From positions 1,824,001 to 1,888,000 of the forward strand of contig CAXXGO010000006.1 in assembly GCA_963666835.2 (NCBI GenBank): a DNA stretch of 64,000 nt, written 5' to 3'. The notes beneath the pieces are model-generated. The model was not told the DNA's origin. It searched no databases and saw only the letters and a list, made by a program, of their open reading frames with translations. Positions within the stretch are counted from its first letter, which is position 1; the number at the start of each line of letters is the position of its first letter. Source of the DNA: Phycisphaerae bacterium (GTDB taxonomy: Bacteria; Planctomycetota; Phycisphaerae; UBA1845). A program made the translations under genes and the position numbers. This document shows positions 1 through 46,100 of this stretch, piece by piece.

Positions 1-2108
1 TCGATACTCACGAGACCGGTTCCGACGGAGCCTATATTGCACGACGTGACCGTGAGCTCACAGGGCCGACCCACTTCGCAAGGGTCTGGCGAAGCGGAGA
101 TTTCCTGCACGATCAAGTCTGGCCCCACCACTGCAACCTGTTCCGTGCGTTCGTTGTTTCCCTCGTTGCTCTCACGAACTTCGGCGCTTGAATCGGCGAC
201 CACCTTAAGGCTGTAGGTGTCGATTGCCTGAAACGTGTAGCCGATGCTCTCGTCGTTGGAATCCCCCGCGTCGAGACCGAAACTGATACGGTCAGTGCCG
301 ATAGAGCTTCCATCGACGTAGTATCTGATGTTGAACGCTGACGCGTCTGTGCCCCCCTGGTTCTTGATGCGGGCATGAATAGTCGCCGGATCATCCACAC
401 CTGGATTCGTTGGTGTCGTCCAGATGTCCTGGACGATTAGATCGGGCTCACAGATTGTGAGGTTCTCAGTGCGATCGTTGTTGTTCTCGTTGCTCTCCGA
501 CACCTCGTAGCTTGAGTCCGCAAAGATCTTGACGCTGTGGGATTCCCCGCTCTGAAACGTGTAGCCGATGCTCTCGTTGTTGGAATCCCCCGCGTCGAGA
601 CCAAAACTGATACGGTCGGTACCGATAGAGCTTCCATCGACGTAGTATCTGATGTTGAACGCTGACGCGTCTGCGCCCCCCTGGTTCTTAATGCGGGCGT
701 GAATCGTCGCAGATTCGCCCACCCCTGGGCATGAAGGTGTCACCCAAATGTCTTCAATGATGAGGTCAGGCTCAGTGACTGTGACGTTCTCCGTCCGTTC
801 GTTGTTGTTCTCGTTGCTCTCCGACAGCTCGTAGCTTGAGTCCGCGAAGACCTTGATGCTGTGGGATCCCCCGCTCTGAAAAGTGTAGCCGATGCTCTCG
901 TCGTTGGAATCCCCCGCGTCGAGACCGAAACTGATACGGTCGGTACCGATAGAGCTTCCATCGACATAGTATCTGATGTTGAAGGCGGATCCGTCACCGT
1001 CACCCTGGTTCTTGATGCGGGCGTGGATTGTCGCCGACTCACCAGCTTCTGGATTGGCTGGTGTAGTCCAGATGTCCTGAACGATCAGATCAGGTTGGGG
1101 GATGTGGACCGTCACATCCCAGGTATGCCAATACATGAAGCTCCAATCGCCATCGTAGTTGTTCGCGTCAATCGTTGTCGTGCCCGAGCCAAAATACCGG
1201 CAATACTCCGGATCCGTGTAGTTGTTTCCCCACCAAGTATGATCTTCGTCGACCTCCGTGTCATTCGCCCACCAAACAGTCCATACCTCTTCACCCCAGA
1301 TGCCGTCAACGCAGAAACAGTTCGTGCCCGGCGTAACCGTCACAGACTCGTATTGTGACGAGCCCCAGTCATGACAGTACGTCGTACGGGAATCGGCGAC
1401 ATTGGCGAGCAGTCCACCACGGGCATCCAGTGCGTTTTTCTCGTAACCGAGCAGGTGCGCCGTAACGAGCATAACCTCTCGACCTAAGTGACGACTCAAC
1501 GTGTCAATGTCCGTATGTCCATGCACGAGGTAGTCGCTGAAAACAAACCCCCGATCTGCGGGATCTGTGTTTCCCACGTCGACCTTCTCGGCAACGGCAA
1601 AGAACGCACCATAATCTCGAAACGAGGAATCGTTTCCGCCTACAAACACCGTTGAGTACGCGAATGGGGCGTCGGGACGCTCCGTGGCGAATGTCACGCC
1701 AACGTCATCAAAGGCCTGTTTGAGCATGAGTAGGACGCGGTCGATGACTTCGGCCTCTCTCCCTCTAAGGGGTGGATCTGGGATAGCGAACGGCTGGATG
1801 TCTATGTGCTCGATAGTGACGGAGCCCCGGTAGCTGACGTTGCGTGCCCCATTGAATTCCAGAACAACGAGCTGCCCGCTTTGCCCAATCCCTTCTGAGT
1901 CGGCCAACTTAAGGCCCGAAACATACTCGGGTCGCGAGGAAGAGTCGACCTGTTGCTGCTGTTTATCGCTCCTTGATAATGACTGGGCTGGTTCTTGCCG
2001 GCCGTGCTCTCCAGCATGTGAAGACACGGCAAGCATAAGTACTAGTATCAACGCCCCGTTTCTGGTTGCGAAGCTGGAATGGCAAGCTGCTCGCATTAAC
2101 TTAGACAT
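1..2108 (-). CDS. Secreted multidomain protein (partial, runs off window): degenerate metalloprotease-like N-domain plus CARDB (Ig-like) repeats
   Basis: Manual translation from ATG 2108 (GGAGG upstream): MSKLMRAACHSSFATRNGALILVLMLAVSSHAG..., then PDLIVQDIWTTPANPEAGESATIHARIKNQGDG...ELSESNENNNERT repeats typical of CARDB. Missing from the ORF track, presumably because it has no stop inside the window. Confidence 0.85.
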   Translation of the reverse strand, partial: MSKLMRAACHSSFATRNGALILVLMLAVSSHAGEHGRQEPAQSLSRSDKQQQQVDSSSRPEYVSGLKLADSEGIGQSGQLVVLEFNGARNVSYRGSVTIEHIDIQPFAIPDPPLRGREAEVIDRVLLMLKQAFDDVGVTFATERPDAPFAYSTVFVGGNDSSFRDYGAFFAVAEKVDVGNTDPADRGFVFSDYLVHGHTDIDTLSRHLGREVMLVTAHLLGYEKNALDARGGLLANVADSRTTYCHDWGSSQYESVTVTPGTNCFCVDGIWGEEVWTVWWANDTEVDEDHTWWGNNYTDPEYCRYFGSGTTTIDANNYDGDWSFMYWHTWDVTVHIPQPDLIVQDIWTTPANPEAGESATIHARIKNQGDGDGSAFNIRYYVDGSSIGTDRISFGLDAGDSNDESIGYTFQSGGSHSIKVFADSSYELSESNENNNERTENVTVTEPDLIIEDIWVTPSCPGVGESATIHARIKNQGGADASAFNIRYYVDGSSIGTDRISFGLDAGDSNNESIGYTFQSGESHSVKIFADSSYEVSESNENNNDRTENLTICEPDLIVQDIWTTPTNPGVDDPATIHARIKNQGGTDASAFNIRYYVDGSSIGTDRISFGLDAGDSNDESIGYTFQAIDTYSLKVVADSSAEVRESNEGNNERTEQVAVVGPDLIVQEISASPDPCEVGRPCELTVTSCNIGSVGTGLVSI
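123..1094 (-). repeat. Three tandem 324-bp (108-aa) CARDB-coding repeats; a fourth, diverged copy starts at 122
   Basis: PDLI codons start at 1094, 770, 446 and 122; segment tcgac(g/a)tagtatctgatgttg recurs at 313, 637 and 961. Confidence 0.9.
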
Positions 2109-2994
2109 TCATGAACCTCCTCGCCTGCTGTCGCAGGTTTTAGATCGTGCTGCAAAACCACGAGACGAAGGGATACTCCACCGTCGGGCGGCATTGCCGT
2201 CGAGCCGGAGCCGCGTCTGTGCGACGGCCTTTAACAGCGACGCCCCGGCTCCATGCCGGAACATAGTTCATGGCCGCTTTGTTGCATGATCGATCTTTGT
2301 TCTCATTGCCCAACGACGCACCGGGGCACCTGGCGCTTCCACCGAGGACGACAACTGTACCGGGAGTCAGCGATGCGAGTATCGCGAGGAAAGCCGTGCT
2401 TTCTCTTCCGAAACAACGACCTAACGGCCACAATAGGAACGATTTTGCCGGTTCATATGGTGTCTTTGTGGCTCGAAACGCCCGCTCTACATATACATGC
2501 GTGAAACGGGTGAAACGGGCGCAGTGAAAAGTCAAAGTTCCTTGTGGGACTGCCGGCACCGGATAACGCATGTTGGGGGTAGATCGGTAGTTACTTTGCG
2601 CGACGCAGTAGCTTGAGCTGCATCTCACAATGTGCCAATCGCAAAACACGAAGCCACGAACACCAAAGGGAAGAACGCTGTGCGGTTTCGGTGCAACGCA
2701 GTTCCTTGCGGACGGGGGAGGGCAAGGACGATGGCTCAGGATGCCCGACCAGTCAAGAATCGCCCCGGTGGGCGTTTACGGGCCACCGGCGCGCGGATCG
2801 GAAAGCCCACCGCAACGAGGCGTAGCAACAGGTACTCGCGACGCCGGGACAGTAGGGCCGCAACAGACCCGAACACATCCTCCCAAATACACCACCAACG
2901 GAATCCGCTAAAGTGCTACTGTGGAGGGTTGTCGTGGGCTGCGAGACCTGTTACAGTGAACTGATGAGGTTTTCAGCTCTCTCGTGAGATGTGC

Positions 2995-3585
2995 ATGTCT
3001 GCGCACAGGGATAGTCCGGTGACGGAGCTACTGGCCGCGGTGGGGCGGGGGGAGGATTCCGCGCAGGAGGCGCTTTGGGCGGTGGTGTATGACGAATTGC
3101 GCCGCGTAGCTCGGGGGCAGATGGCCGGAGAGGCATCGGACCTCACTCTCCAGCCGACCGCCCTGGTTCACGAGGCGTACTTTCGTCTGTTTGACTCTCA
3201 GGACGTCCAATGGTCGAGCCGGCGACATTTCTTTGCGGCCGCGGCGAAAGCGATGCGTCGTATTCGCATAGATGACGCACGTAAGAGAAAGCGCCTTAAG
3301 CGCGGCGGCGCCGAGCGGCCCGCGCATCTGGCGGAGGAGCCGCCGCTGTTCGATCAGGATCCGGTCGAGGTGCTGGCCGTCGATGAGGCGGTGGACAAGC
3401 TTGAGCAGCTTGATCCGCGCAAGGCCCGGGTCGTAATGCTGCGCTACTTCGCGGGTCTGACCGTAGACGAAACCGCTGATGCCCTCGATGTGTCACCACG
3501 AACGGTGGACAACGAGTGGCGGCTGGCCCGGGCGTGGTTGCACCGCGAATTGAGCAAGGGCGACACCGTAATGGGTGACAAGTAG
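2995..3585 (+). CDS. ECF sigma factor, kinase-associated type (TIGR02999/ECF43-like)
   Basis: VTELL...VYDELRRVA...TLQPTALVHEAYFRL...RRHFFAAAAKAMRRI...LRYFAGLTVDETA...WRLARAWL. Confidence 0.93.
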   Translation: MSAHRDSPVTELLAAVGRGEDSAQEALWAVVYDELRRVARGQMAGEASDLTLQPTALVHEAYFRLFDSQDVQWSSRRHFFAAAAKAMRRIRIDDARKRKRLKRGGAERPAHLAEEPPLFDQDPVEVLAVDEAVDKLEQLDPRKARVVMLRYFAGLTVDETADALDVSPRTVDNEWRLARAWLHRELSKGDTVMGDK

Positions 3586-3588
3586 CCG

Positions 3589-6500
3589 ATGTTGGCCGGT
3601 CAGTGGGAGCGCGTGCAGGAGCTTTTCGAAGCGGTCGTAGCACGCTCGCCTAAGGACCGGGCCGCTTACCTGGCTGAGGCCTGCAAAGATGACGCGGAGC
3701 TGCGGGCCGAGGTCGAATCGCTCTTGGAGCACGACGCGCGGGCTTCTTCAGAGTTTCTCCTTCCTCCCCGGCTCGGGTCCGGGGCGGCGCGTGGCAGCGC
3801 GGACGACGCCCCGGACCCTCTCATTGGCAAACGTGTCAACAAGTATCTGATCAAGAAGGTGATCGGCTCCGGCGGGATGGGCACGGTGTACGCGGCCGAG
3901 CAGATCAGGCCCAGCCGCATCGTGGCCCTGAAGGTCATGCGGGCCTGGGCCTCTACACGGTCGGCGTTGCGCCGTTTCGAGTATGAGTCGGAGATCCTCG
4001 CCCGACTGACGCACCCGCATATCGCCCAGATCTACGAGGCCGGTACGCATCGTGATCCTGAAGCGGGACGCGGCGTTGTGCCGTTCTTCGCCATGGAGTA
4101 CATCCGTGACGCCAGGCCGTTCATCGCTTATGCCAACGAAAAGAAGCTGGGCACGCGGGCTCGACTGGAGCTGTTCACCCAAGTCTGCGACGCCGTCCAC
4201 CACGGCCACCAGCGCGGTGTAATCCACCGAGATCTCAAGCCCGGCAACATCCTGGTGGATTCGTCGGGGCAGGTGAAGGTCATCGACTTCGGGGTGGCCC
4301 GCCTGACGGATTCGGACATCGCCGTGACCACGATTCGAACCGACGTCGGACAGTTGATCGGCACGCTGCAATACATGAGCCCGGAACAATGCGACGCGAA
4401 CGTTCTGGGCTTGGATACGCGCAGTGATGTCTACGCGTTGGGCGTGCTGGCGTACGAGCTTATCACCGGACGGTTGCCCTATGACGCGCGGAGTGAAACC
4501 ATCTACCGGGCGACGAAGGTCATTCGGGAAAGCACACCGCCCCGGCCGTCCTCGATCAACCCGAAGCTGCGTGGCGATGTGGAGACGGTTGTCCTTAAGG
4601 CGATGGAGAAGGACCGCGACCGGCGGTACCAATCCGCCTCGGATTTCGCGGATGATATTCGCCGGTACCTCAATAAGGCCCCGATCAACGCCCGTCCGCC
4701 GAGCATGTACTATCAGCTATCGTTGCTCGCCAGACGCAACAAGGCCGCCGTCGGTGCTCTTGCCGGCGTGTTCGTTGCGCTGCTTTTTGCGCTGGCGGGA
4801 ATCAGCTGGGCATACACTCAAACCCGTGCGGCCCGGGATGAATCCCGGAAGAACGAGCATGAGGCGCGGTGGAAGGCCTACGTTGCCGGCATCACTGCGG
4901 CTGAACTGGCGTTTCCATTGAATGACTTCGCAATGATCAATGACAGCCTCAACCGTGCGCCGCGCGAGTTCCGAGACTGGGAGTGGTCGCATCTGCACGC
5001 CGAAACCGATTACAGCCTCAAGACGATTCGTCTCGACGAGTTTGGTTTTGACGGCCGTTGCATAATAACGATCAACTCGATGGGCACACATATCGCGGCG
5101 GGCGCGCCGGATGGATCGATCTGCTTGTGGAGCACCTTGACCGGAGCGAAACTCGTCACTCTTCCTGGCGACGGGCAGCAAGTACAGTCCGTAGCTTTGA
5201 GCCGCGACGGATCGCGAATCGCGGCGAGGACGTCGGAGGGAGCAATCCGCGTGTGGGATGCTGCCGGCATCCCAAAGGTCGACGCCTCGTGGCGGCCTGA
5301 ACGGAGCTATTGCCCTCCGGCATTCAGCTCTGACGGCACCCGGGTGGCCTCCGTATCCTCTAGCGGTTTGGCTTGCGTGTGGGATACCTTAACCGGTCAT
5401 GAGGTCTGTGTCTCCCCCATCCACGATACGACGGTTCTCACTTTGGCCCTGAGTCCTGATGGCATGCGTATGGGAGCCAGCTCAACTGACGACACGATTC
5501 GCTTTTGGAACCTGGGCTCCGGTGATGAAGCGCACGTTCTGGCCGGGCACGATGAGGATGTCAGATCCCTGGCCTTCAGCCCGGACGGTGACTACTTAGC
5601 GTCTGCGTCACTGGACGGCACGGTGCGTCTATGGAGTATTGACGATGGCGCGGAGGTGCGGCGAATGGAGAGAAGGGGAGAGGGCGGCGGCTTCGTTGCA
5701 TTCAGTACGGACGGTAGTCGCCTTCTGTGCAAGAGTATGAACGACTACCTCTGCGTTTGGGATGTCGCCACCGGTAGCCGCATCGCGGAGATTCGCACGC
5801 GCGGCCATAGTCCGGATCAAGTGGCGTTCACGCCGGATGGCAAGGGACTTGTTTCTGGTAGGCATGACGGCACCGTGACATACTGGGGTCTCTTCCCCCC
5901 GGAAGGACTGAGGATCTATCGGGGTCACCAAGCTGCGGTTCGTTCAGTTAAGTTCAGCGCGGACGGGACGCGAATCGCATCGGGAGCGACGGACAAGACT
6001 GTACGGCTTTGGGACTCATCCACAGCGGAAGAGCTGGCCGTGCTGGCGGAACATAGCGACGTGGTGATTGCCGCTGCGTTCAACCGAGACGGCACCCGCG
6101 TGGCATCGGCGTCGTGGGACGGCACAGTACGGCTGTGGGATACCAGCACCGGCGAACAGACCGGCGTTCTGCTTCACGGCAACGAGATGGTCTTCTCCGT
6201 AGCATTCAGCCCAGAGGGCACCCGTTTGGCTTCTGGAACGTCGGAGGGAGCGTTACGTCTCTGGGATGCGGCTACGGGCCGCCTGCTGTGCAAGCAGGAC
6301 CTGGGAACGGTCGTCAAGTGCGTTGCGTTCAGCCCCGACGGAGTCAAATTGGCGTCCGGACTCGAAGATGGAACCATGCACGTCTGGGATGTCTCCTCGG
6401 GTGAGCACATGTCTCGTCTAGACGAACGAACCTGTGGGAACATCTCGATTGAGGACATCGCCTTCAGTCCGGACGGTGCTCTTCTTGCACCGGTCGGCGG

Positions 6501-6984
6501 AAACGGCATGTGCCTGTGGAACTTGGCCACGGGGGAAACCGTCGCCTCCCCGAGCAAGGTGCATAGCTTCTCCTCTGTCGAGTTCAACCAGACCGGTACG
6601 CGCGTGGCTCTGGGCTCGTCCGTCTCAACGGCGTGGATCGCGGATACGTCCACAGGTGAACGGGTCCTCACCCTTCGAGAGTATCAAGACTCGGTGAACT
6701 CCGTGGCGTTTAGCCCGGACGGCACGCGTTTGGCTGCAGCACTGGGCGACGGCACCGTGTGCCTGCGGGACAGCGTGCCGTTCAGGGATCGCTATGCGCA
6801 ATACCAAGCCATCCGTAACGCCGCGCCGGAAGCCCGGCAACTTGTGGAAGACCTTCACCGTGAGATAAGAGAATGGGGCGACGTAGTTGAGCGCCTGCGG
6901 GACGACACCACCCTGACCGCCCCCGTCCGCCGCGCGGCTCTCAACGAAGTCCTCCGCCGAGCGTCCGGCCACGGCGATGGATGA
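3589..6984 (+). CDS. Ser/Thr protein kinase with one TM segment and WD40 repeats
   Basis: IGSGGMGTVY, VALK, HRDLKPGN, DFG, GTLQYMSPE; TM AAVGALAGVFVALLFALAGISW; many 'VAFSPDGTRLAS...VRLWD' repeats; starts 3 nt after the sigma stop. Confidence 0.95.
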   Translation: MLAGQWERVQELFEAVVARSPKDRAAYLAEACKDDAELRAEVESLLEHDARASSEFLLPPRLGSGAARGSADDAPDPLIGKRVNKYLIKKVIGSGGMGTVYAAEQIRPSRIVALKVMRAWASTRSALRRFEYESEILARLTHPHIAQIYEAGTHRDPEAGRGVVPFFAMEYIRDARPFIAYANEKKLGTRARLELFTQVCDAVHHGHQRGVIHRDLKPGNILVDSSGQVKVIDFGVARLTDSDIAVTTIRTDVGQLIGTLQYMSPEQCDANVLGLDTRSDVYALGVLAYELITGRLPYDARSETIYRATKVIRESTPPRPSSINPKLRGDVETVVLKAMEKDRDRRYQSASDFADDIRRYLNKAPINARPPSMYYQLSLLARRNKAAVGALAGVFVALLFALAGISWAYTQTRAARDESRKNEHEARWKAYVAGITAAELAFPLNDFAMINDSLNRAPREFRDWEWSHLHAETDYSLKTIRLDEFGFDGRCIITINSMGTHIAAGAPDGSICLWSTLTGAKLVTLPGDGQQVQSVALSRDGSRIAARTSEGAIRVWDAAGIPKVDASWRPERSYCPPAFSSDGTRVASVSSSGLACVWDTLTGHEVCVSPIHDTTVLTLALSPDGMRMGASSTDDTIRFWNLGSGDEAHVLAGHDEDVRSLAFSPDGDYLASASLDGTVRLWSIDDGAEVRRMERRGEGGGFVAFSTDGSRLLCKSMNDYLCVWDVATGSRIAEIRTRGHSPDQVAFTPDGKGLVSGRHDGTVTYWGLFPPEGLRIYRGHQAAVRSVKFSADGTRIASGATDKTVRLWDSSTAEELAVLAEHSDVVIAAAFNRDGTRVASASWDGTVRLWDTSTGEQTGVLLHGNEMVFSVAFSPEGTRLASGTSEGALRLWDAATGRLLCKQDLGTVVKCVAFSPDGVKLASGLEDGTMHVWDVSSGEHMSRLDERTCGNISIEDIAFSPDGALLAPVGGNGMCLWNLATGETVASPSKVHSFSSVEFNQTGTRVALGSSVSTAWIADTSTGERVLTLREYQDSVNSVAFSPDGTRLAAALGDGTVCLRDSVPFRDRYAQYQAIRNAAPEARQLVEDLHREIREWGDVVERLRDDTTLTAPVRRAALNEVLRRASGHGDG

Positions 6985-7099
6985 AGCCACTCCACCGTGT
7001 GTCGCCCGGCAGCTCCCATTGAACATCTGCGCGAATAGGCTCTGCCGGTCACCGCGCAATACGACCGCTTCCGCCCAAAGCGGCGCCGCACAACCCGCC

Positions 7100-7360
7100 T
7101 CAACTCCCCGGCCGTTCGTCGCAGGAGCACTCCTCGCTCAATTCCGCGGCAAAGCGGCGTAGGGCGGCCCACTTGCCCTCTGCGAGCATGAGCGCCCTTT
7201 GCTCCTCCGACATGATCGTGTCATCGTCGCCTTCGGGTATGCGGCTCACGATCTCTTCTTGGAGGATGTCCAGGAACCTGAGCTGATACTTACGATCCAG
7301 CGAGTCAGCCAGGGCGATCGGCGTTGCCGCAGTGCTTTGCGGTTGTTGTGTCTGAGTCAT
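7100..7360 (-). CDS. Hypothetical protein (86 aa), last gene of the phage-like cassette
   Basis: ORF with AAGGAG-like RBS, overlapping the end of the upstream gene; no recognisable motif. Confidence 0.5.
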   Translation of the reverse strand: MTQTQQPQSTAATPIALADSLDRKYQLRFLDILQEEIVSRIPEGDDDTIMSEEQRALMLAEGKWAALRRFAAELSEECSCDERPGS

Positions 7361-8042
7361 TCGAATTATCTCCTTCTTTTGAGCCTGCCAAGGACACGAG
7401 GTAGTTCCGGTGTTCGCTAATGCGTTTCCGCACTGCCGCTTGGGCGGTAGGCATCGTCAAGACCTTGCCCGCGATCGTCGGAGCAAGGAGGGCCGGAAGC
7501 TCCTCCAGAACGCTCACGAACCATTCAATCAGCTCAAGGCGGTTTCGCTTGAGTTCTTCGAGCGTCACCAGCAGCCCGGCCTCCTCCTGGTTCTTCCGCT
7601 CTTCCCGTTCAGCCCGGGCTTGCTTGTACCGGCGATCCGCCTCACGGCTGCTCACCCGGCCGTCTTTTCCATCGCCGGCAAGCCGGTGCTTGTTACTGGC
7701 CAGGAAGTCATGCAGTGCGGCCACGACCGCGGGCAGGTCGATCGTCCGACCGAGCAACGGCAGACCGTACCGATGGGCCTGCTCGTTGATGACCTTCACC
7801 TGTCGCCCGGACATCGTCTGCCAATCCCGCTTCGGGATCGACCTGTAATGCTGCCAACGGAGTTGAGTTGCACGCGCCGCCTCCGCCCGACGCAGAGCGG
7901 CCAGCTCCCGCCCGGTGGGTTTCTCGCCCGCCCGACGCTTCGCCAACGCCGTAGCGGCCAGCTCGCGATCGATCTGATCGACCACCGTGAGCACCGGCTC
8001 CCCGGGCTTGGTTGCCTCCCGTGTGGTTTTTGGATTCGCCAT
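7305..8042 (-). CDS. Putative phage terminase small subunit (Nu1-like)
   Basis: Start MANPK 2 nt after the radical SAM stop; HTH-like region then 'RRYKQARAEREERKNQEEAGLLVTLEE...LEELPALLAP', resembling the Nu1-type coiled-coil tail; lies downstream of a cos-like site. Confidence 0.6.
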   Translation of the reverse strand: MANPKTTREATKPGEPVLTVVDQIDRELAATALAKRRAGEKPTGRELAALRRAEAARATQLRWQHYRSIPKRDWQTMSGRQVKVINEQAHRYGLPLLGRTIDLPAVVAALHDFLASNKHRLAGDGKDGRVSSREADRRYKQARAEREERKNQEEAGLLVTLEELKRNRLELIEWFVSVLEELPALLAPTIAGKVLTMPTAQAAVRKRISEHRNYLVSLAGSKEGDNSNDSDTTTAKHCGNADRPG

Positions 8043-8044
8043 GA

Positions 8045-9049
8045 CTATCCCCTCAATCCCATCACCTTCCGATAGGTCGGCGTCTGCTTGATGGCGTCCA
8101 TGCACTCCGCGTACGACATCTTCGGCAGAGTCCGGGTCGACCGCGTATCCTGAGCCATGGTCTTGAAGCAATACGCAGTGCCCGGCTTCCGCATTCCGTC
8201 GGAGTATTCAACCCGCCCATCACGGGCGATGTGGTTCATGTTGGCCGTGAGAGTCTGCCAGCCCAGGCCGTCTACGCCGCAACAGCACGGATGATCGCCG
8301 AGCGACCGCAGGCGGTTCTCCGCACAATAGAACCGGAGCCCCAACTCGTGACAGCGCTGCCGAATCCGCCGGAAGTCCCGCTCCAAAGCCGCAGCCGGAT
8401 AGCACCAATCGCCCGCGACCTTCACGAACCCGTCGGCCCTGCGACCGCGTTTGAGACCCTCGATCGTAACGCCATACACCCCGGCCTCCGCCAGCTTTTC
8501 GAGGTTTGCCAGCACGTCCCGGCACAAGCCCAGCGCGTACGGCTGAATTCGCGCGATGGTGCGCGGCACTACCGGAGAGATCTTCCGCATGAGCTCGAGT
8601 CGCTCATGGTACCGCGGCGCTCCGGGCTCCAGCTTGTCGTATTGCGGCGAGACCATCGACACCTGGAACACGACGTTGGCACGGCCGAGCAGGCTTAGGT
8701 ACGGCTCCTCCCCCGGGAGCGTGGCCTTGGTGGACACCACGAACGGGTATTTCGTCTTTACCAGAATCTGTAACGCCTCCAGGGATCGGCGGTGCTTCCG
8801 CTCGGCCGGCTGGAAGGGATCGCTGGTTCCGCCCCAGTGAATCGGGATGTCCCAGTCACACCAGGCCGTCTCCAGGGTCCGGTGCCCGTTGATGAACCGC
8901 CGGAGCGAATCCGCGGACTCGCCCAGCTTGACGCTCAGGTCCGCTTTCCGCCGCACGAAGCAGTAGGCGCATTCATGAGTACACCCCTGGTACGTGTCGA
9001 AACGCACCGGCAGGTCGCACAACACTACTTGTGATCCGGCTCGGGGCAT
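8045..9049 (-). CDS. Radical SAM protein (SplB-like, phage-associated)
   Basis: CTHECAYC (CxxxCxxC), GGTSDPFQPAE, VSTK motifs; C-terminal CCCG; AAGGAG RBS. Confidence 0.9.
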   Translation of the reverse strand: MPRAGSQVVLCDLPVRFDTYQGCTHECAYCFVRRKADLSVKLGESADSLRRFINGHRTLETAWCDWDIPIHWGGTSDPFQPAERKHRRSLEALQILVKTKYPFVVSTKATLPGEEPYLSLLGRANVVFQVSMVSPQYDKLEPGAPRYHERLELMRKISPVVPRTIARIQPYALGLCRDVLANLEKLAEAGVYGVTIEGLKRGRRADGFVKVAGDWCYPAAALERDFRRIRQRCHELGLRFYCAENRLRSLGDHPCCCGVDGLGWQTLTANMNHIARDGRVEYSDGMRKPGTAYCFKTMAQDTRSTRTLPKMSYAECMDAIKQTPTYRKVMGLRG

Positions 9050-9136
9050 TGTCGCTCCTTCGGTGAATGCCGCGTCTTAATAGCCAGCCCGCACACGCGA
9101 TCCAGCTCACTCTCCGGTAAGGTCGGCCAAGGCCCT

Positions 9137-9290
9137 TCCCCCCTTACCAAGGGGGGATCGAGGGGGGTCTGCTACCACGCAGAAAGACCCAACAAGATCC
9201 GATCAGCGCCAGCATTACAGCGTATTCCGTCGCCTGTGCGTTGCAGCGACGAAGAACCTCCCCCAGCTTCTCCTTGGTAAGGAGGGGAGG
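9137..9290. repeat. Inverted pair of REP-like palindromes
   Basis: TCCCCCCTT-ACC-AAGGGGGGA at 9137-9157 and the related inverted copy CTCCTT-GGT-AAGGAG at ~9270-9284, between the ParB and radical SAM genes. Confidence 0.7.
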
Positions 9291-9335
9291 AAGAAGTACG
9301 ACTACCTCTGAAAACAGCGCCATTCCTTTGTCACC

Positions 9336-9911
9336 TCACGCCATCTCCGCGCACAGCGCGGTAATCCGCTCTGCCACCGTTGTCTTGCTGTGATCCGAAC
9401 ACGCCCGTCGAACCACCGCAGCATCCTCAGGCGGGAACAGAAACGTAATCTGCTCGCAGTCGGCAGACTCGGAGATGCGGTCGACGAAGCAGCCCTCGAG
9501 ATCCCCCTCGGCCAGTACGGCCGGCTGGGCGAGATCGTCGAACAGAAGTTCGTCGTACAGGTCAACCGCGCTGCCCCGGAGCTCTTCGAGGATCGCGTCC
9601 AACTCCGGCGTGAACTCCCCGGCAATCGTCGGCGAGTTCAACGCAATGTTGAGCGCCTTCTCCTCGGTCTCCGACAGGTCGACGACCACCACATCCGCCT
9701 CGACCTCCCCGGCCGCCAGCATGGCCCTCAGCCGCTGATGCCCCCCGACGACGTTTCCGGTCCGCTTGTTCCAGACGATCCGCTCGACATACCCGAACCG
9801 CTTCAAAGACGCAGAGAGCCCCGTAAACGCCCGATCGTCGATCCGCCGAGGGTTGTAGCCCGCCGGCCGCAGATCGGCCAAACAAACGCGCTCGGTGTGG
9901 TGCTGTTTCAT
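9336..9911 (-). CDS. ParB/sulfiredoxin-like N-terminal domain protein of phage type
   Basis: LADLRPAGYNPRRI...SLKRFGYVERIVWNKRTGNVVGGHQRL...EEKALNIALN; short acidic C-terminus with no methylase domain. Confidence 0.9.
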   Translation of the reverse strand: MKQHHTERVCLADLRPAGYNPRRIDDRAFTGLSASLKRFGYVERIVWNKRTGNVVGGHQRLRAMLAAGEVEADVVVVDLSETEEKALNIALNSPTIAGEFTPELDAILEELRGSAVDLYDELLFDDLAQPAVLAEGDLEGCFVDRISESADCEQITFLFPPEDAAVVRRACSDHSKTTVAERITALCAEMA

Positions 9912-10091
9912 CGCCCCTAAACCTCCAACGTCGCCCGGTCATCATCGTTCAGTGCGGGCATCGAACGACTCCAAGGTGGCACTCTCTTCAACCACATATA
10001 CCCGACATTAGGAGCGGTGTCGAGCCTATGTCACGCGATTTGTTACTTACTTAGTCAAAACAACCCCCCCGCGCGCGTTTTTCAGCCGATA

Positions 10092-10134
10092 CCCCGCGGT
10101 CCCCGCCCGCGGGGGGGGGCGTCCAAAAGGACCC
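10092..10134 (-). other. Putative lambda-like cos site (cosQ plus cosN-like 12-mer)
   Basis: Minus strand GGGTCCT (10134-10128), 19 nt, GGGCGGGGACCG (10108-10097). Lambda has cosQ GGGTCCT and cohesive end GGGCGGCGACCT (10/12 match). Confidence 0.55.
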
Positions 10135-10150
10135 GAACCGCTCTCCCGGC

Positions 10151-10242
10151 GGTGACACTACCCCCTGAAACCGCCTTCGCCGGTGCCACTACCCTCTGTC
10201 TGTGGCCCCAATTGAGGGTTGTGTCACTGTCACCAGTGTCAC
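10151..10242. repeat. Iteron-like GTGNCAC repeats
   Basis: GGTG(A/C)CACTACCC at 10151 and 10182; GTGTCAC at 10221 and 10236; TGTCAC at 10228. Confidence 0.55.
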
Positions 10243-10581
10243 CTACAAGTCGTTTCCCCCGCTCTCTCGCTGTGTGTCTGATCCGAACCGGTGGATTCCG
10301 GATCATGTGAGGATGCGTGAACCTTCGGCCGGTCAGTGGATCGCGACTACCAGTGCGACCGGCACTACGGAGCTTCGGGCGTCTCCGGAAAACACGCCGG
10401 ATCGCATCAAAGCGATCTCTGGTTCATTTGGCCGGAAAGCGGGGTCCTTAGACTCTGCTTCCCCGGACTGCGGGGCGGGATAGCGCGCGGACGATAAACG
10501 TGCGCTTCGCACAAGAACTTGTCCGAATCTGGCGGTTTCTGGGCTCAGAATCGGTGTTTTTTCGTGTTTAAACGCCTATGG

Positions 10582-10628
10582 GCGGTTTCCTAAACCGGGG
10601 GTCGCAGGTTCGAGTCCTGCCGGGCGCA
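10582..10628 (+). mobile_element. 3' fragment of tRNA-Arg(CCT): probable att site of an integrated element
   Basis: Anticodon arm CGGT-TTCCTAA-ACCG, T-arm GCAGG-TTCGAGT-CCTGC, acceptor 3' strand CGGGCGC-A; no matching 5' strand (GCGCCCG) or D-arm upstream. Confidence 0.8.
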
Positions 10629-12536: not shown

Positions 12537-12944
12537 GATAGCGTTTCCTCGTCGTCAATGGGCATGCAACGTCCGCCCGACCCAATCCGCATCAGATTAT
12601 AGCCAGTCCCCGACGAGGTTTCGAATGGCGAAACGGTACGAACGTGTCGTGGGTGCAGGATCGTGCCTCGACCGTGCCGTAAGTTAAGCCCCTTGGGGCG
12701 ACAGGTTCTCGAGCCCCACGGCGTAAGCCTGGGGGACTGTGCGGTGGCCTCGCGCCAAGCCCCTACCTGTGGGCGGCAGAAGGCATCGAGGCATCGATCG
12801 GACGCCGGTGATTCAACGTCATACGGCGGCACGATGGCGAGCGCCGAGACTTCCTCGATCATCGAAGTGCCGCCCTGACGGGCTGGTTCCGCGAGACACG
12901 CGCGTGGCACGTTTTCGTGCGATTCGGCCCATTGTGGCCTTGAT

Positions 12945-12975
12945 GGCAGGTCTCGTACCTCGACCATGCCCTACC
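12945..12975 (-). repeat. GTAG-type REP element (family B); related copies near 12655, 14926, 21346 and in the 22.9-23.2 kb array
   Basis: ggcaggtctcgtacctcgaccatgccctac. Confidence 0.75.
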
Positions 12976-43165: not shown

Positions 43166-46100
43166 CTAATCATCAATACAGATGCCGCTGTCGCAGTGGC
43201 ACGCCGGAGTGCCGGCGCAGGTCAGGCACCCTGTTCCGTCTACGAGCGGGGACCAGTCCTCCTGATCGAGACCACTGTTGCACTCCTCGCAGTCATTGGC
43301 CGGGTTTAAGTCGCCGTCGGTGTAGCATACTACGCCGATCGAGCACATTCCGGCATCGATGGAGTGGTCGCACTCGTCGTTCACCTCGTCGCAGGTGTCC
43401 GTTGTGCAATCCAGAGTGTCGGCACAATCTCTCGTGGTGCCGCCGCCGCATATCCCGGCCGTGCACTCCTGGTTTACCATACAGAACTCGGTGTCGCACG
43501 GCGTCGTGTCCGCGGCATGGTTGTCAAGGCACAGACCGAACCCGTCGCAACTGTCGGGATCCGTGCAGTCATCGTCGGTCGGATCACCGCAGGGCGTGCC
43601 GGCCGCCAAGTCCGGGTGAGTGCAGACCGCCGCCGCACACAGATCGTCCGTACAGTCGTTGCCTTCGTCCGGGCAGGCGGTGCCGTCGGGCTCGTTGTTT
43701 GCCAGGCATACTCCGGCGCCGTCGCAGGTATCGGGGTTATCACAATCGGAGTCGGTCGGGTCACCGCAGGACGTGCCGGCCGCCAAGTCCGGGTGAGTGC
43801 AGACCGCCGCCGCACACAGATCGTCCGTACAGTCGTTGCCTTCGTCCGGGCAGGCGGTGCCGTCGGGCTCGTTGTTTGCCAGGCATACTCCGGCGCCGTC
43901 GCAGGTATCGGGGTCATCACAATCGGAGTCGGTCGGGTCACCGCAGGACGTGCCGGCCGCCAAGTCCGGGTGAGTGCAGACCGCCGCCGCACACAGATCG
44001 TCCGTACAGTCGTTGCCTTCGTCCGGGCAGGCGGTGCCGTCGGGCTCGTTGTTTGCCAGGCATACTCCGGCCCCGTCGCAGGTATCGGGGTCATCACAAT
44101 CGGAGTCGGTCGGGTCACCGCAGGACGTGCCGGCCGCCAAGTCCGGGTGAGTGCAGACCGCCGCCGCACACAGATCGTCCGTACAGTCGTTGCCTTCGTC
44201 CGGGCAGGCGGTGCCGTCGGGCTCGTTGTTTGCCAGGCATACTCCGGCGCCGTCGCAGGTATCGGGGTCATCACAATCGGAGTCCGTCGGGTCACCGCAG
44301 GACGTGCCGGCCGCCAAGTCCGGATGCGTGCAGACCGCCGCCGCACATAGATCGTCCGTGCAGTCGTTGCCTTCGTCCGGGCAGGCGGTGCCGTCGGGCT
44401 CGTTGTTTGCCAGGCATACTCCGGCCCCGTCGCAGGTATCGGGGTTATCACAATCGGAGTCCGTCGGGTCACCGCAAGCCGTTCCGGAAGCCTCGTAATT
44501 GGACGCGCAGATGCCTGCCCCGTTGCAGGTGTCGGGGTTGTCGCAATCCGAATCGACGATGCTACCGCAGAGGGTCCCTGAGGCCTCGTGGTTATCCAGG
44601 CAGACCCCGTGTCCGTTGCACGTGTCCGGGTTTGTGCAAACGGTATTGTCCTGATCGCCGCACAACGTGCCGACCACAGAATGCGGATGCACACAATTAC
44701 CGGCTAGGCACACGTCATCCGTGCAGTCGTTGGTATCCGGTGTGCAGGCGGTTCCGTTTGCCTCGTGGTTGCCCAGGCACACCCCGGCGCCGTCGCAGGT
44801 ATCAGCAGCCGTGCAATCCGTGATGCTGGAGTCGCCGCAGAGATCACCGAAAGACGCGAAGTTGTCCATACATACACCCGCTCCGTTACACGTGTCCGCC
44901 GGGTTGCACGTGGTGTCGGTCGGATCCCCGCACGCAGTTCCGGGCGGATGATTCGGGTGGGTGCATACCGCGTTTGAGCAGACGTCGTTGGTGCAGTCGT
45001 TTCCGTCGTCGCTACAAGGGGCACCGTTCGCAACGGGGTTATTCTGGCACACACCGAGACTGTTGCAGGTGTTGGCCGCATCGCACTCTCCGCTCGACTG
45101 ATCGCCGCACGGAGTGCCCGCCGGCATGTACGGATGATCGCAGGAACCTGCGGCGCACACGTCATCCGTGCAATCGTTACCGTCGCCCGAGCAGGGAGTG
45201 TCGTCGGCTGCGTGGTTATCCAGGCATACACCTGCGCCGTTACAGGTATCCGGATTGGTGCATACAGTGTTGGTCTGATCACCGCAGGATGTTCCGATCG
45301 GGGAATTCGGATGATTGCATACGCCGGCGGCGCACACATCGTTCGTACAATCGTTCGTATCGGCGGTGCAGATCGTACCATCTGCCTCGTGGTTATCCAG
45401 GCACGATCCGGCTCCATCGCAGGTGTCAGGATCCGTGCAATCGTCATCTGTCAGGTCACCGCACGGAGTGCCACTCGTTTCGTGGTTCGCCAAGCAAACC
45501 CCGACGCCGTCGCACGTATCCGGATCCGTACACTCGTCGTCGATACCGGAGCCGCATGGTGTGTTGGCGGGTAGGTTCTGATGGTCGCATACCCCTGCAA
45601 GGCACAGATCATCCGTGCAGTCATTACTATCGTCCGGGCAACTTGTACCGTCCGGCGCATGGTTGGGCACGCAGACCCCGCCGTCGCACGTGTCAGGATC
45701 CGTGCAGGCGTCATCAAGTGGACTACCGCATGACGTACCGGCTGCTGCGTGGTTATCCAGGCATACCCCCGCGCCGTTACACGTATCCGGATTGGTACAC
45801 ACGGTGTTGGTCTGATCGCCGCAGGATGTTCCGATCGGGGAGTTCGGATGAACACACGTGCCGGCATCGCACACATCTACCGTGCATTCGTTCCCATCAT
45901 CGGTGCAACCCGTACCGTCCGCCTCGTGGTTATCCAGGCATGTTCCGGCTCCGTCACAGGTGTCGGGATCCGTGCAATCTCCATTATCCGAGTTACCGCA
46001 CGAGAAGCCGGCAGCTTCGTGATTAGCCAGGCAGACCCCGGCGCCATCGCACTTGTCGGGATTCGTACAGTCGTCATCCACGGTGCTGCCGCACGGATCA

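Follow-up and report, generated by a model that had tools for sequence, protein, structure and literature searches.

A 47-kb tRNA-integrated island of a Phycisphaerae bacterium with a cos and small-terminase cassette: a candidate phage satellite of helper-genome length

In this work we describe the right end of an integrated element, E1, lying in a 64,000-nucleotide stretch of the genome of a Phycisphaerae bacterium (C6:1824001-1888000; hereafter the window). E1 measures 47,128 bp from one attachment site (att) to the other, and its right end, at 7100-10628, carries a phage-type packaging cassette with a putative cohesive-end site (cos) and a gene for a small terminase (TerS), with no gene for a large terminase (TerL) or capsid. 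Unprefixed coordinates are window positions; C1, C2, C3, C5 and C6 are contigs of the same genome (6.02 Mb searched, 92% complete), E1 to E7 are islands of that genome, and L with a number denotes the TerS loci compared. The features, from attR inwards and then into the adjoining cargo, are the following.

10583-10628, plus strand: attR, a 46-bp copy of the tRNA-Arg(CCT) 3' end, 46/46 identity to the intact gene
10147-10242, no strand: heptamers in direct and inverted iteron-like repeats, a possible origin of replication
10128-10134, minus strand: cosQ-like heptamer, the same as lambda has upstream of its cohesive end (record J02459)
10097-10108, minus strand: putative cosN, start 26 nt behind the cosQ-like heptamer, 10 of 12 letters shared with the lambda cohesive end
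10045-10053, minus strand: conserved downstream motif, candidate cosB element or promoter part
9336-9911, minus strand: ParB-N domain protein, 191 aa (PF02195 E 2.7e-4, below cut-off; PHROG E 2.5e-29)
9072-9323, no strand: dispersed host repeat, REP/MITE-like, between ParB-N and radical SAM, missing from the sister copy
8045-9049, minus strand: radical SAM protein, 334 aa (PF04055 E 1.5e-4, below cut-off; CxxxCxxC present)
7305-8042, minus strand: small terminase TerS, 245 aa (phrog_57 E 6.5e-11)
7100-7360, minus strand: orf86, an 86-aa open reading frame (ORF) in the place that TerL occupies in phages
3589-6984, plus strand: cargo, Ser/Thr kinase with WD40 repeats, convergent to the cassette, 84% identity in sister island E2b
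2989-3585, plus strand: cargo, ECF sigma factor, identical in E2b
1-1907, minus strand: cargo, a CARDB-repeat protein of 2691 aa, of which the window holds the 5' part and the rest lies to its left

The initial annotation had read this region as the right end of a tRNA-integrated element with a cos-like site and a putative TerS, a candidate phage satellite or packageable island, and had advised looking to the left of the window for the intact tRNA, an integrase and a primase. All three are there. The intact tRNA-Arg(CCT) gene is at C6:1787427-1787500, with attL at C6:1787455-1787500, to the left of attR and outside the window. Next to it is a 358-aa tyrosine integrase (PF00589 E 1.1e-7, phrog_1 E 1.2e-34), conserved against that of E2a with a dN/dS of 0.11. 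The opposite strand encodes a TubC_N protein, an 815-aa Toprim/DUF3987 primase-helicase (E 2.3e-67 to DUF3987), a topoisomerase-VI-like protein and a 79-aa helix-turn-helix (HTH)-like ORF, which had no Pfam or PHROG match and was grouped by the Atlas with viral HTH proteins at 0.93-0.95; AlpA matches were found in islands E5 and E2b. Every feature named in the initial annotation at the right end was found again, and its view of the ECF, kinase and CARDB genes as cargo agrees with their position inside the att sites. Moreover, a Logan contig identical in every letter bridges the kinase-orf86-TerS junction and another bridges attR, so that the layout is not an artefact of this assembly; the Logan runs all come from one study and may be the source sample itself.

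Between the replication and packaging modules lie about 36 kb of cargo. Its left part holds DUF4145 and, with HsdR and HsdS, the remnant of a type I restriction-modification system; HsdM was not called in this operon, which stands beside a type III-B CRISPR-Cas locus. The latter comprises a Cmr1-6 operon, a Cas6-reverse transcriptase (RT)-Cas1 fusion (C6:1808257-1810971, inside E1 and left of the window), Cas2, an array of 27 repeats and Csx3; the CARDB, ECF sigma and kinase genes make up the rest. Of 31 ORFs called between the att sites, 29 were covered by a Pfam scan, and no head, tail, lysis, TerL or relaxase gene was found among them. Profiles built from phages of the TerS family likewise detected no TerL, portal, S49 protease or capsid at E<=0.05 in six frames of ten island sequences, as the initial annotation had stated for TerL and capsid genes.

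The order at the attR end is iterons, cos, ParB-N, radical SAM, TerS and orf86. In related phage loci the lambda cosQ heptamer stands about 90-230 nt before TerS, with a second motif 76-82 nt further on. Contigs that begin near TerS were found at 22 loci; of the 12 measured, 11 start 48-58 nt before the second motif, and three truncated-start phage contigs, those for which an intact locus allowed pairing, start 25-26 nt behind cosQ. Such a pile-up of contig starts suggests physical genome ends. A cos profile was trained on 12 phage loci, selected for having the heptamer and including no island sequences, and gave two matches in the 6.02 Mb: E1 itself (10138-10041, E 0.0046) and the sister copy in E2b. 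The composite cos motif likewise occurs twice in the genome against 0.08 expected, and only 4 of the 650 heptamers of this kind in the genome are followed by an equally good match to the lambda end. The exact cos pattern had no match in a scan of viral contigs. Judged by comparison with the phage loci, the cos site of E1 appears to be a real one.

Just outside cos, a 21-nt direct repeat at 10147 and 10178 (86%) and five related heptamers at 10152-10242 make up the iteron-like region; nowhere else in the genome do five such heptamers fall within 120 nt, though the motif was defined on this site. Island E4 has a homologue (75% over 98 nt) close to its attR, the second cassette copy has none, and the iterons would appear to be part of the replication module and not of the shared packaging cassette. 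They may constitute an origin, which would come to lie beside the integrase-primase module once the element circularised.

By its profile match, 7305-8042 is a TerS of the lambda-like (Nu1-type) kind. Its structural model (predicted local distance difference test score 83) has a helix-turn-helix-like core and long C-terminal helices. The C-terminal domain is closest to that of the TerS of island E5 and could be aligned in 3 of 400 other genomes of the class, two of them with prophage-like loci carrying TerL and portal and one with a small island lacking TerL. A strict chimeric origin of TerS was considered and dropped; the C-domain has only 15-28 of 98 positions identical to any of the 15 loci compared, so the domain simply evolves fast. 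A complex predicted for this domain with the N-terminal part of the TerL of phage L019 scored 0.00 and gave no answer.

The ParB-N protein is 61% identical over 116 aa to the product of a gene between cos and TerS in phage locus L062, and in three unrelated viral contigs (two of them mapped) a ParB-N gene and then a radical SAM gene (46-48% to that of E1) precede TerS, TerL and portal candidates. These two genes are probably a phage DNA-modification module kept beside cos, which is the weakest step of our explanation; no paper on a combination of ParB, radical SAM and terminase was found in the literature. The palindromic repeats at 9072-9323 and 12660-12975 are dispersed, with many genome copies and high read depth. 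Since phage loci share the same gene order and cos, the cassette is the left end of the chromosome of a lambda-like planctomycete phage (cos, ParB-N, radical SAM, TerS), cut where TerL would start. As to orf86, its homologues were confined to the genome's own cluster, with none outside this genome and no Atlas match. It was also tried as the remnant of a TerL N-terminus, an idea rejected after comparison with 115 TerL N-termini (0.2 bits; hhalign 0.7%).

The resemblance to phage operons invites a simpler explanation, that E1 is the plain deletion remnant of a prophage integrated at tRNA-Arg(CCT), which the initial annotation had offered as its alternative. The order of cos, ParB-N, radical SAM and TerS copies that of phages, E1 has the length of a phage genome, and TerL lies within 2.5 kb behind TerS in 38 of the 38 evaluable viral loci (those with at least 600 nt downstream). 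However, the left end of E1 is a five-gene integrase/HTH/primase module unlike a prophage early region, none of the 29 scanned ORFs is a head, tail or lysis gene, the same junction between TerS and cargo is present in two islands, and two more have TerS without TerL. We regard a decayed prophage as largely refuted and very improbable.

The TerS family itself was followed in an alignment of 70 sequences (the query and 69 of 88 matches) and in 39 viral loci, 39 genome loci and the best 80 of 110 metagenome loci, of which 16 of the genome and 69 of the metagenome loci were too short to judge. Head genes accompany TerS in 30 of the 39 viral loci. Among the 23 evaluable cellular loci, four have head genes, ten an intact TerL with no head gene within 7-10 kb, five a broken TerL (two of them probably through assembly indels) and four TerS alone; TerS and TerL without head genes thus account for 15. 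The initial annotation had held that homologous loci always continuing with TerL and portal would point to a prophage remnant: this continuation is the rule in viral contigs but not in cellular genomes, where head genes are the exception. Planctomycetota provide 35 of the 39 genome loci. This TerS family is thus used by genuine phages and, equally, by headless islands, which are a common class. Examples of the latter are L035, L036-L037, L038, L041 and L094-L120, where in many planctomycete genomes a ParB-methyltransferase, TerS and a full TerL are followed by cargo and neither portal nor capsid is present; one such island has CRISPR-Cas as cargo.

These islands raise the question of whether the cassette of E1 is a relic, derived from a phage left end or, after loss of TerL, from a headless island with TerS and TerL, and by now a mere passenger or in decay. 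Such islands are common (15/23), derivatives with TerS alone exist, and island E3 (47,358 bp, at tRNA-Asp) shows a related cassette in decay, with a truncated TerS and an orf86 stub retained. On the tree, the headless group forms a branch without E1 with support of 93/96, in a subset of 37 rows chosen after a first tree had been seen and including L057 and L090, labelled phage although they have no head gene within 10 kb; an approximately unbiased (AU) test did not reject E1 inside that group (p 0.14). The N-terminal domain of the E1 TerS is nearest to phage sequences, with 67-69% identity to L051, L127 and L129 as opposed to 48-53% to the headless and TerS-only genome loci compared, and orf86 holds no detectable vestige of TerL, since 121 of 484 shuffles score equally well.

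Against a relic also speaks the second cassette copy, at C1:2141614-2144389 behind a tRNA-Arg(ACG) fragment in island E2b. Homology between E1 and E2b starts about 10 nt before cosQ and extends 6.2 kb into the cargo through the kinase and ECF genes, with different tRNAs and different att-proximal parts, and cos is intact in both. Between the copies dN/dS is 0.07 for ParB-N, 0.16 for radical SAM, 0.27 for TerS (p 0.011) and 0.14 for the island-specific orf86 (p 0.024; few changes). By these ratios all four genes are under purifying selection, and the cassette is maintained in two islands. We consider a relic unlikely, even if public-run contigs gave no sign of mobility.

E2b itself is split by the assembly: the end of C1 (C1:2140917-2168828), C2 and 4.6 kb of C5 (C5:24400-28992) would together give about 45 kb, and it is probably one island of that size in tandem with E2a. 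It ends in a CRISPR array at a contig end, and C2 carries a cas operon that resembles type I-C and stops at cas2 (labels by eye). The neighbouring C5:1-24400 has Firmicute-like genes and a tetranucleotide correlation to the genome of 0.71-0.80, against 0.93-0.97 elsewhere, and is likely a chimeric join or contamination.

Length is a further line of evidence. The att-bounded islands above 20 kb measure 47,128, 47,358, 44,806, 43,081, 43,708 and 40,935 bp, all six within 40.9-47.4 kb (p ~7e-5 against a log-uniform null of 20-75 kb that ignores relatedness); the smaller ones measure 16,362 bp, 11,693 bp and, in two cases, about 3 kb. Three of the ten long phage records of the TerS family have terminal repeats and are complete, at 44,219, 43,868 and 42,409 bp, the other seven being linear or proviral records of 34-47 kb. 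The 11,693-bp island, E5, lies at tRNA-Gly with another integrase and encodes AlpA, a primase, a helicase and an HTH-type TerS, with no TerL; four of its units make 46.8 kb. The C-domain of its TerS is related to that of E1 (49% over 67 aa) and its cos motif is similar by BLAST, although the phage profile gives an E of only 0.29; the E5 TerS had no match among viral contigs. The 16.4-kb island (C1:2070204-2086566) carries a primase, its 46-bp repeat falls within a gene labelled by eye as elongation-factor-P-like, and three units of it would be 49 kb.

A large island with secreted-protein cargo also recalls integrative conjugative and mobilizable elements, and E1 might have spread by conjugation or in vesicles with the cassette incidental to it. 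Four sister islands have neither cos nor TerS, and most tycheposons, in the available part of their description, have no packaging genes (bioRxiv 2020.12.28.424599). However, no relaxase or type IV secretion gene was found among the E1 ORFs scanned, and the VirD4-type coupling protein PF02534 is absent from the genome (neither other families nor mobilisation by an oriT alone were covered). Moreover, this route would leave the narrow length range unexplained, and we give it very little weight.

[quoted passage not shown] Infection by a cos phage of the same family would lead to excision of E1, and replication from the iteron region would yield concatemers. The element's own TerS would bind its own cos and recruit the TerL of the helper through its C-terminal half, the part to which TerL recruitment has been mapped in lambda, according to the excerpts of PMC9026076. 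One cos-to-cos unit would then fill one unmodified full-size helper head, with helper length reached by cargo and not by a shrunken capsid or the packing of multimers. The island would be kept at that length because cos-to-cos packaging needs a unit close to the length of the helper genome. The satellite reading of the initial annotation is thus supported; the 47-kb length, the CRISPR-Cas cargo, the sister copy and the iterons outside the shared cassette are new.

A different role for the same genes would be interference or defence: the helper terminase would package E1 through cos alone, or not at all, and TerS, perhaps with orf86, would tie up the helper TerL and lower phage yield, in the manner of Rpp of the PICI EcCICFT073. 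The cos region of E1 is close enough to the phage family consensus to be read by a helper TerS, E1 does carry defence cargo, and packaging through cos alone has been shown for EcCICFT073 (PMC6092414, in the part available). Yet the E1 TerS is full length with both domains under selection, unlike a partner that only binds DNA, and stands in a normal operon behind cos, which makes this role improbable.

Several observations weigh against packaging as a satellite and must be taken into account. Three public runs (contigs only, one study) showed neither an attP junction nor an empty site nor a cos end; the loose ends at att in those runs matched other tRNA contexts and not attL. In run X3 one contig departs from TerS at the border between the N- and C-domains and one joint skips 2551-9968, both single contigs that were not used. 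No GpA-type TerL, no lambda-type portal and no match to PF05136, PF03354 or PF04860 was found in the 92%-complete genome, which means that there is no resident helper. The assignment of TerS, proposed in the initial annotation, stands by the phrog_57 profile but not by fold, since searches of PDB and BFVD gave no match at E<=0.001, though several of the weak rows are small terminases. In 400 further genomes of the phylum the radical SAM gene had no match at E<=1e-30, nor did any close copy of the exact cassette turn up beyond this genome. The E1 integrase lacks the first His of HxxR, the usual integrase motif, part of the synonymous divergence between the two cassette copies may have been imported from phages by recombination, and E1 is 6-11% longer than the three complete phages. 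Finally, four of the six large islands (E2a, E4, E6 and E7) have no recognisable cos or TerS, so that size alone does not require the cassette; these four might depend on a different helper, might no longer have the module or might owe their size to another cause.

The genome contains two TerL genes (Terminase_6N), both in Mu-like head clusters, which could possibly be the helper for the islands lacking cos. One is a Mu-like prophage at C5:285900-307000, running towards the contig end, and the other a short isolated cluster of Mu-like TerL, portal, protease and capsid genes with no tail genes (C6:199800-205600). E2a and E4 have 837 nt in common at 93% (C5:29465-30300 and C3:446150-447000), a non-coding stretch with a 116-aa ORF that has no family match; placed where E1 has its cos cassette, it is a candidate for an unrecognised packaging module. 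Island E7 (C1:473459-514412, 40.9 kb), inserted at what is presumably a tmRNA-like 3' end, carries a type I-G-like CRISPR-Cas operon, and its first spacer matches 31/31 nt in a large RHS gene of E3 (C6:384873-384903), pointing to conflict between islands or to self-targeting. The 26 spacers of E1, 18 of the type I-C array and 24 of the type I-G array had no match among the phage loci fetched, the only sequences compared. In E6 (C1:463550-465897) and E7 (C1:484531-485271), four-helix-bundle genes (Avd-like, by eye) adjoin repeated sulfatase-modifying-factor-like cargo and are possible diversity-generating elements.

It is conceivable, though we lean slightly against it, that E1, E2a, E3, E4, E6, E7 and probably E2b form one family of helper-sized satellites, in which modules are swapped and length is held by unit-length packaging into unmodified heads. 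Each particle would then ferry 30-40 kb of cargo between planctomycetes, including three types of CRISPR-Cas, with E1 as the minimal form with TerS and cos; the satellites would have a TerS C-domain in common, by which one helper TerL is docked. If our explanation is true, a satellite whose cargo takes up an entire helper head would break the rule that satellites are smaller than their helpers. It would also account for the movement of large relaxase-free genomic islands and provide a route by which whole CRISPR-Cas systems, here type III-B with RT-Cas1, spread in phage particles.

Described satellites average 10-18 kb, and a review calls the smaller size of hitchers relative to helpers a pervasive trend (PMC10803314, PMC11389934, as far as their available text goes). 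[quoted passage not shown] We found no helper-sized, large terS-bearing or planctomycete satellite in the literature, where subscription journals were thinly covered, most papers were judged by title or the start of the abstract, and supplements may list larger PICIs.

Of the traits by which PICIs are recognised, E1 has att sites with an integrase, a primase-replicase with a candidate origin, TerS and cos, and no structural genes; it departs from them in size and has no confirmed AlpA or Stl regulator. The P4-like satellite genes psu, sid, delta and alpha primase had no Pfam or PHROG match among the E1 ORFs scanned, and the set of the capsid-forming PICIs (own TerL, portal, capsid and head-tail genes) is missing from E1. 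No capsid-remodelling gene or Stl/Str pair was found in E1, nor any capsid match that would correspond to the capsid morphogenesis gene of type A PICIs; type B PICIs likewise have no such gene (excerpts of PMC10085698).

Close to E1 stand the Gram-negative PICIs of the cos type, with EcCICFT073 as prototype. According to the available parts of PMC6092414 and PMC9026076, they share with E1 site-specific integration, a primase-replicase and lambda-like cosQ and cosN; they have an HTH regulator, for which the 79-aa ORF is a candidate in E1, they use full-size helper capsids, as E1 would, and like E1 they have no TerL, tail or lysis genes of their own. However, in EcCICFT073 the helper TerS is redirected by Rpp (PMC6092414, in part), whereas in E1 a phage-like cos is followed by a full TerS of the element's own. 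EcCICFT073 has about one-third of the helper length by its partly available description, and E1, with 47,128 bp, has full helper length beside phages of 42.4-44.2 kb.

The planctomycete TerS and TerL headless islands resemble E1 in the TerS family, the cos-like motif before TerS, the ParB-N gene and the replacement of head and tail by cargo that may include CRISPR-Cas; they keep TerL and a ParB-methyltransferase, while E1 lacks TerL, carries a radical SAM gene and has a TerS outside their branch, a placement qualified by the AU test. Like E1, Staphylococcus aureus pathogenicity islands (SaPIs) and other TerS-encoding PICIs have their own TerS, which would recruit the helper TerL, and the set of int, xis-like, pri-rep, ori and terS, the ori of E1 being a candidate. 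The TerS of SaPIs is of the pac type, and many SaPIs shrink the capsid, whereas E1 has a cos site, no capsid-remodelling gene and its cargo between the replication and packaging modules.

The elements known as VEIMEs and PICMIs also use full-size helper heads that are not remodelled, with a packaged length equal to that of the phage, but as monomers of <5-16.8 kb packed as concatemers, whereas E1 would reach phage length as a monomer (PMC9618062, PMC10803314, in the parts available); the four-unit length of E5 would fit their mode. Tycheposons, in the portion of their description available (bioRxiv 10.1101/2020.12.28.424599), resemble the islands of this genome in the swapping of tRNA-targeting integrase and primase/helicase modules and in having terS-bearing and cargo-bearing types in one gene pool. 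They measure 10-20 kb and the PICI-like ones were never seen with extra cargo, whereas E1 combines TerS and cos with some 36 kb of it.

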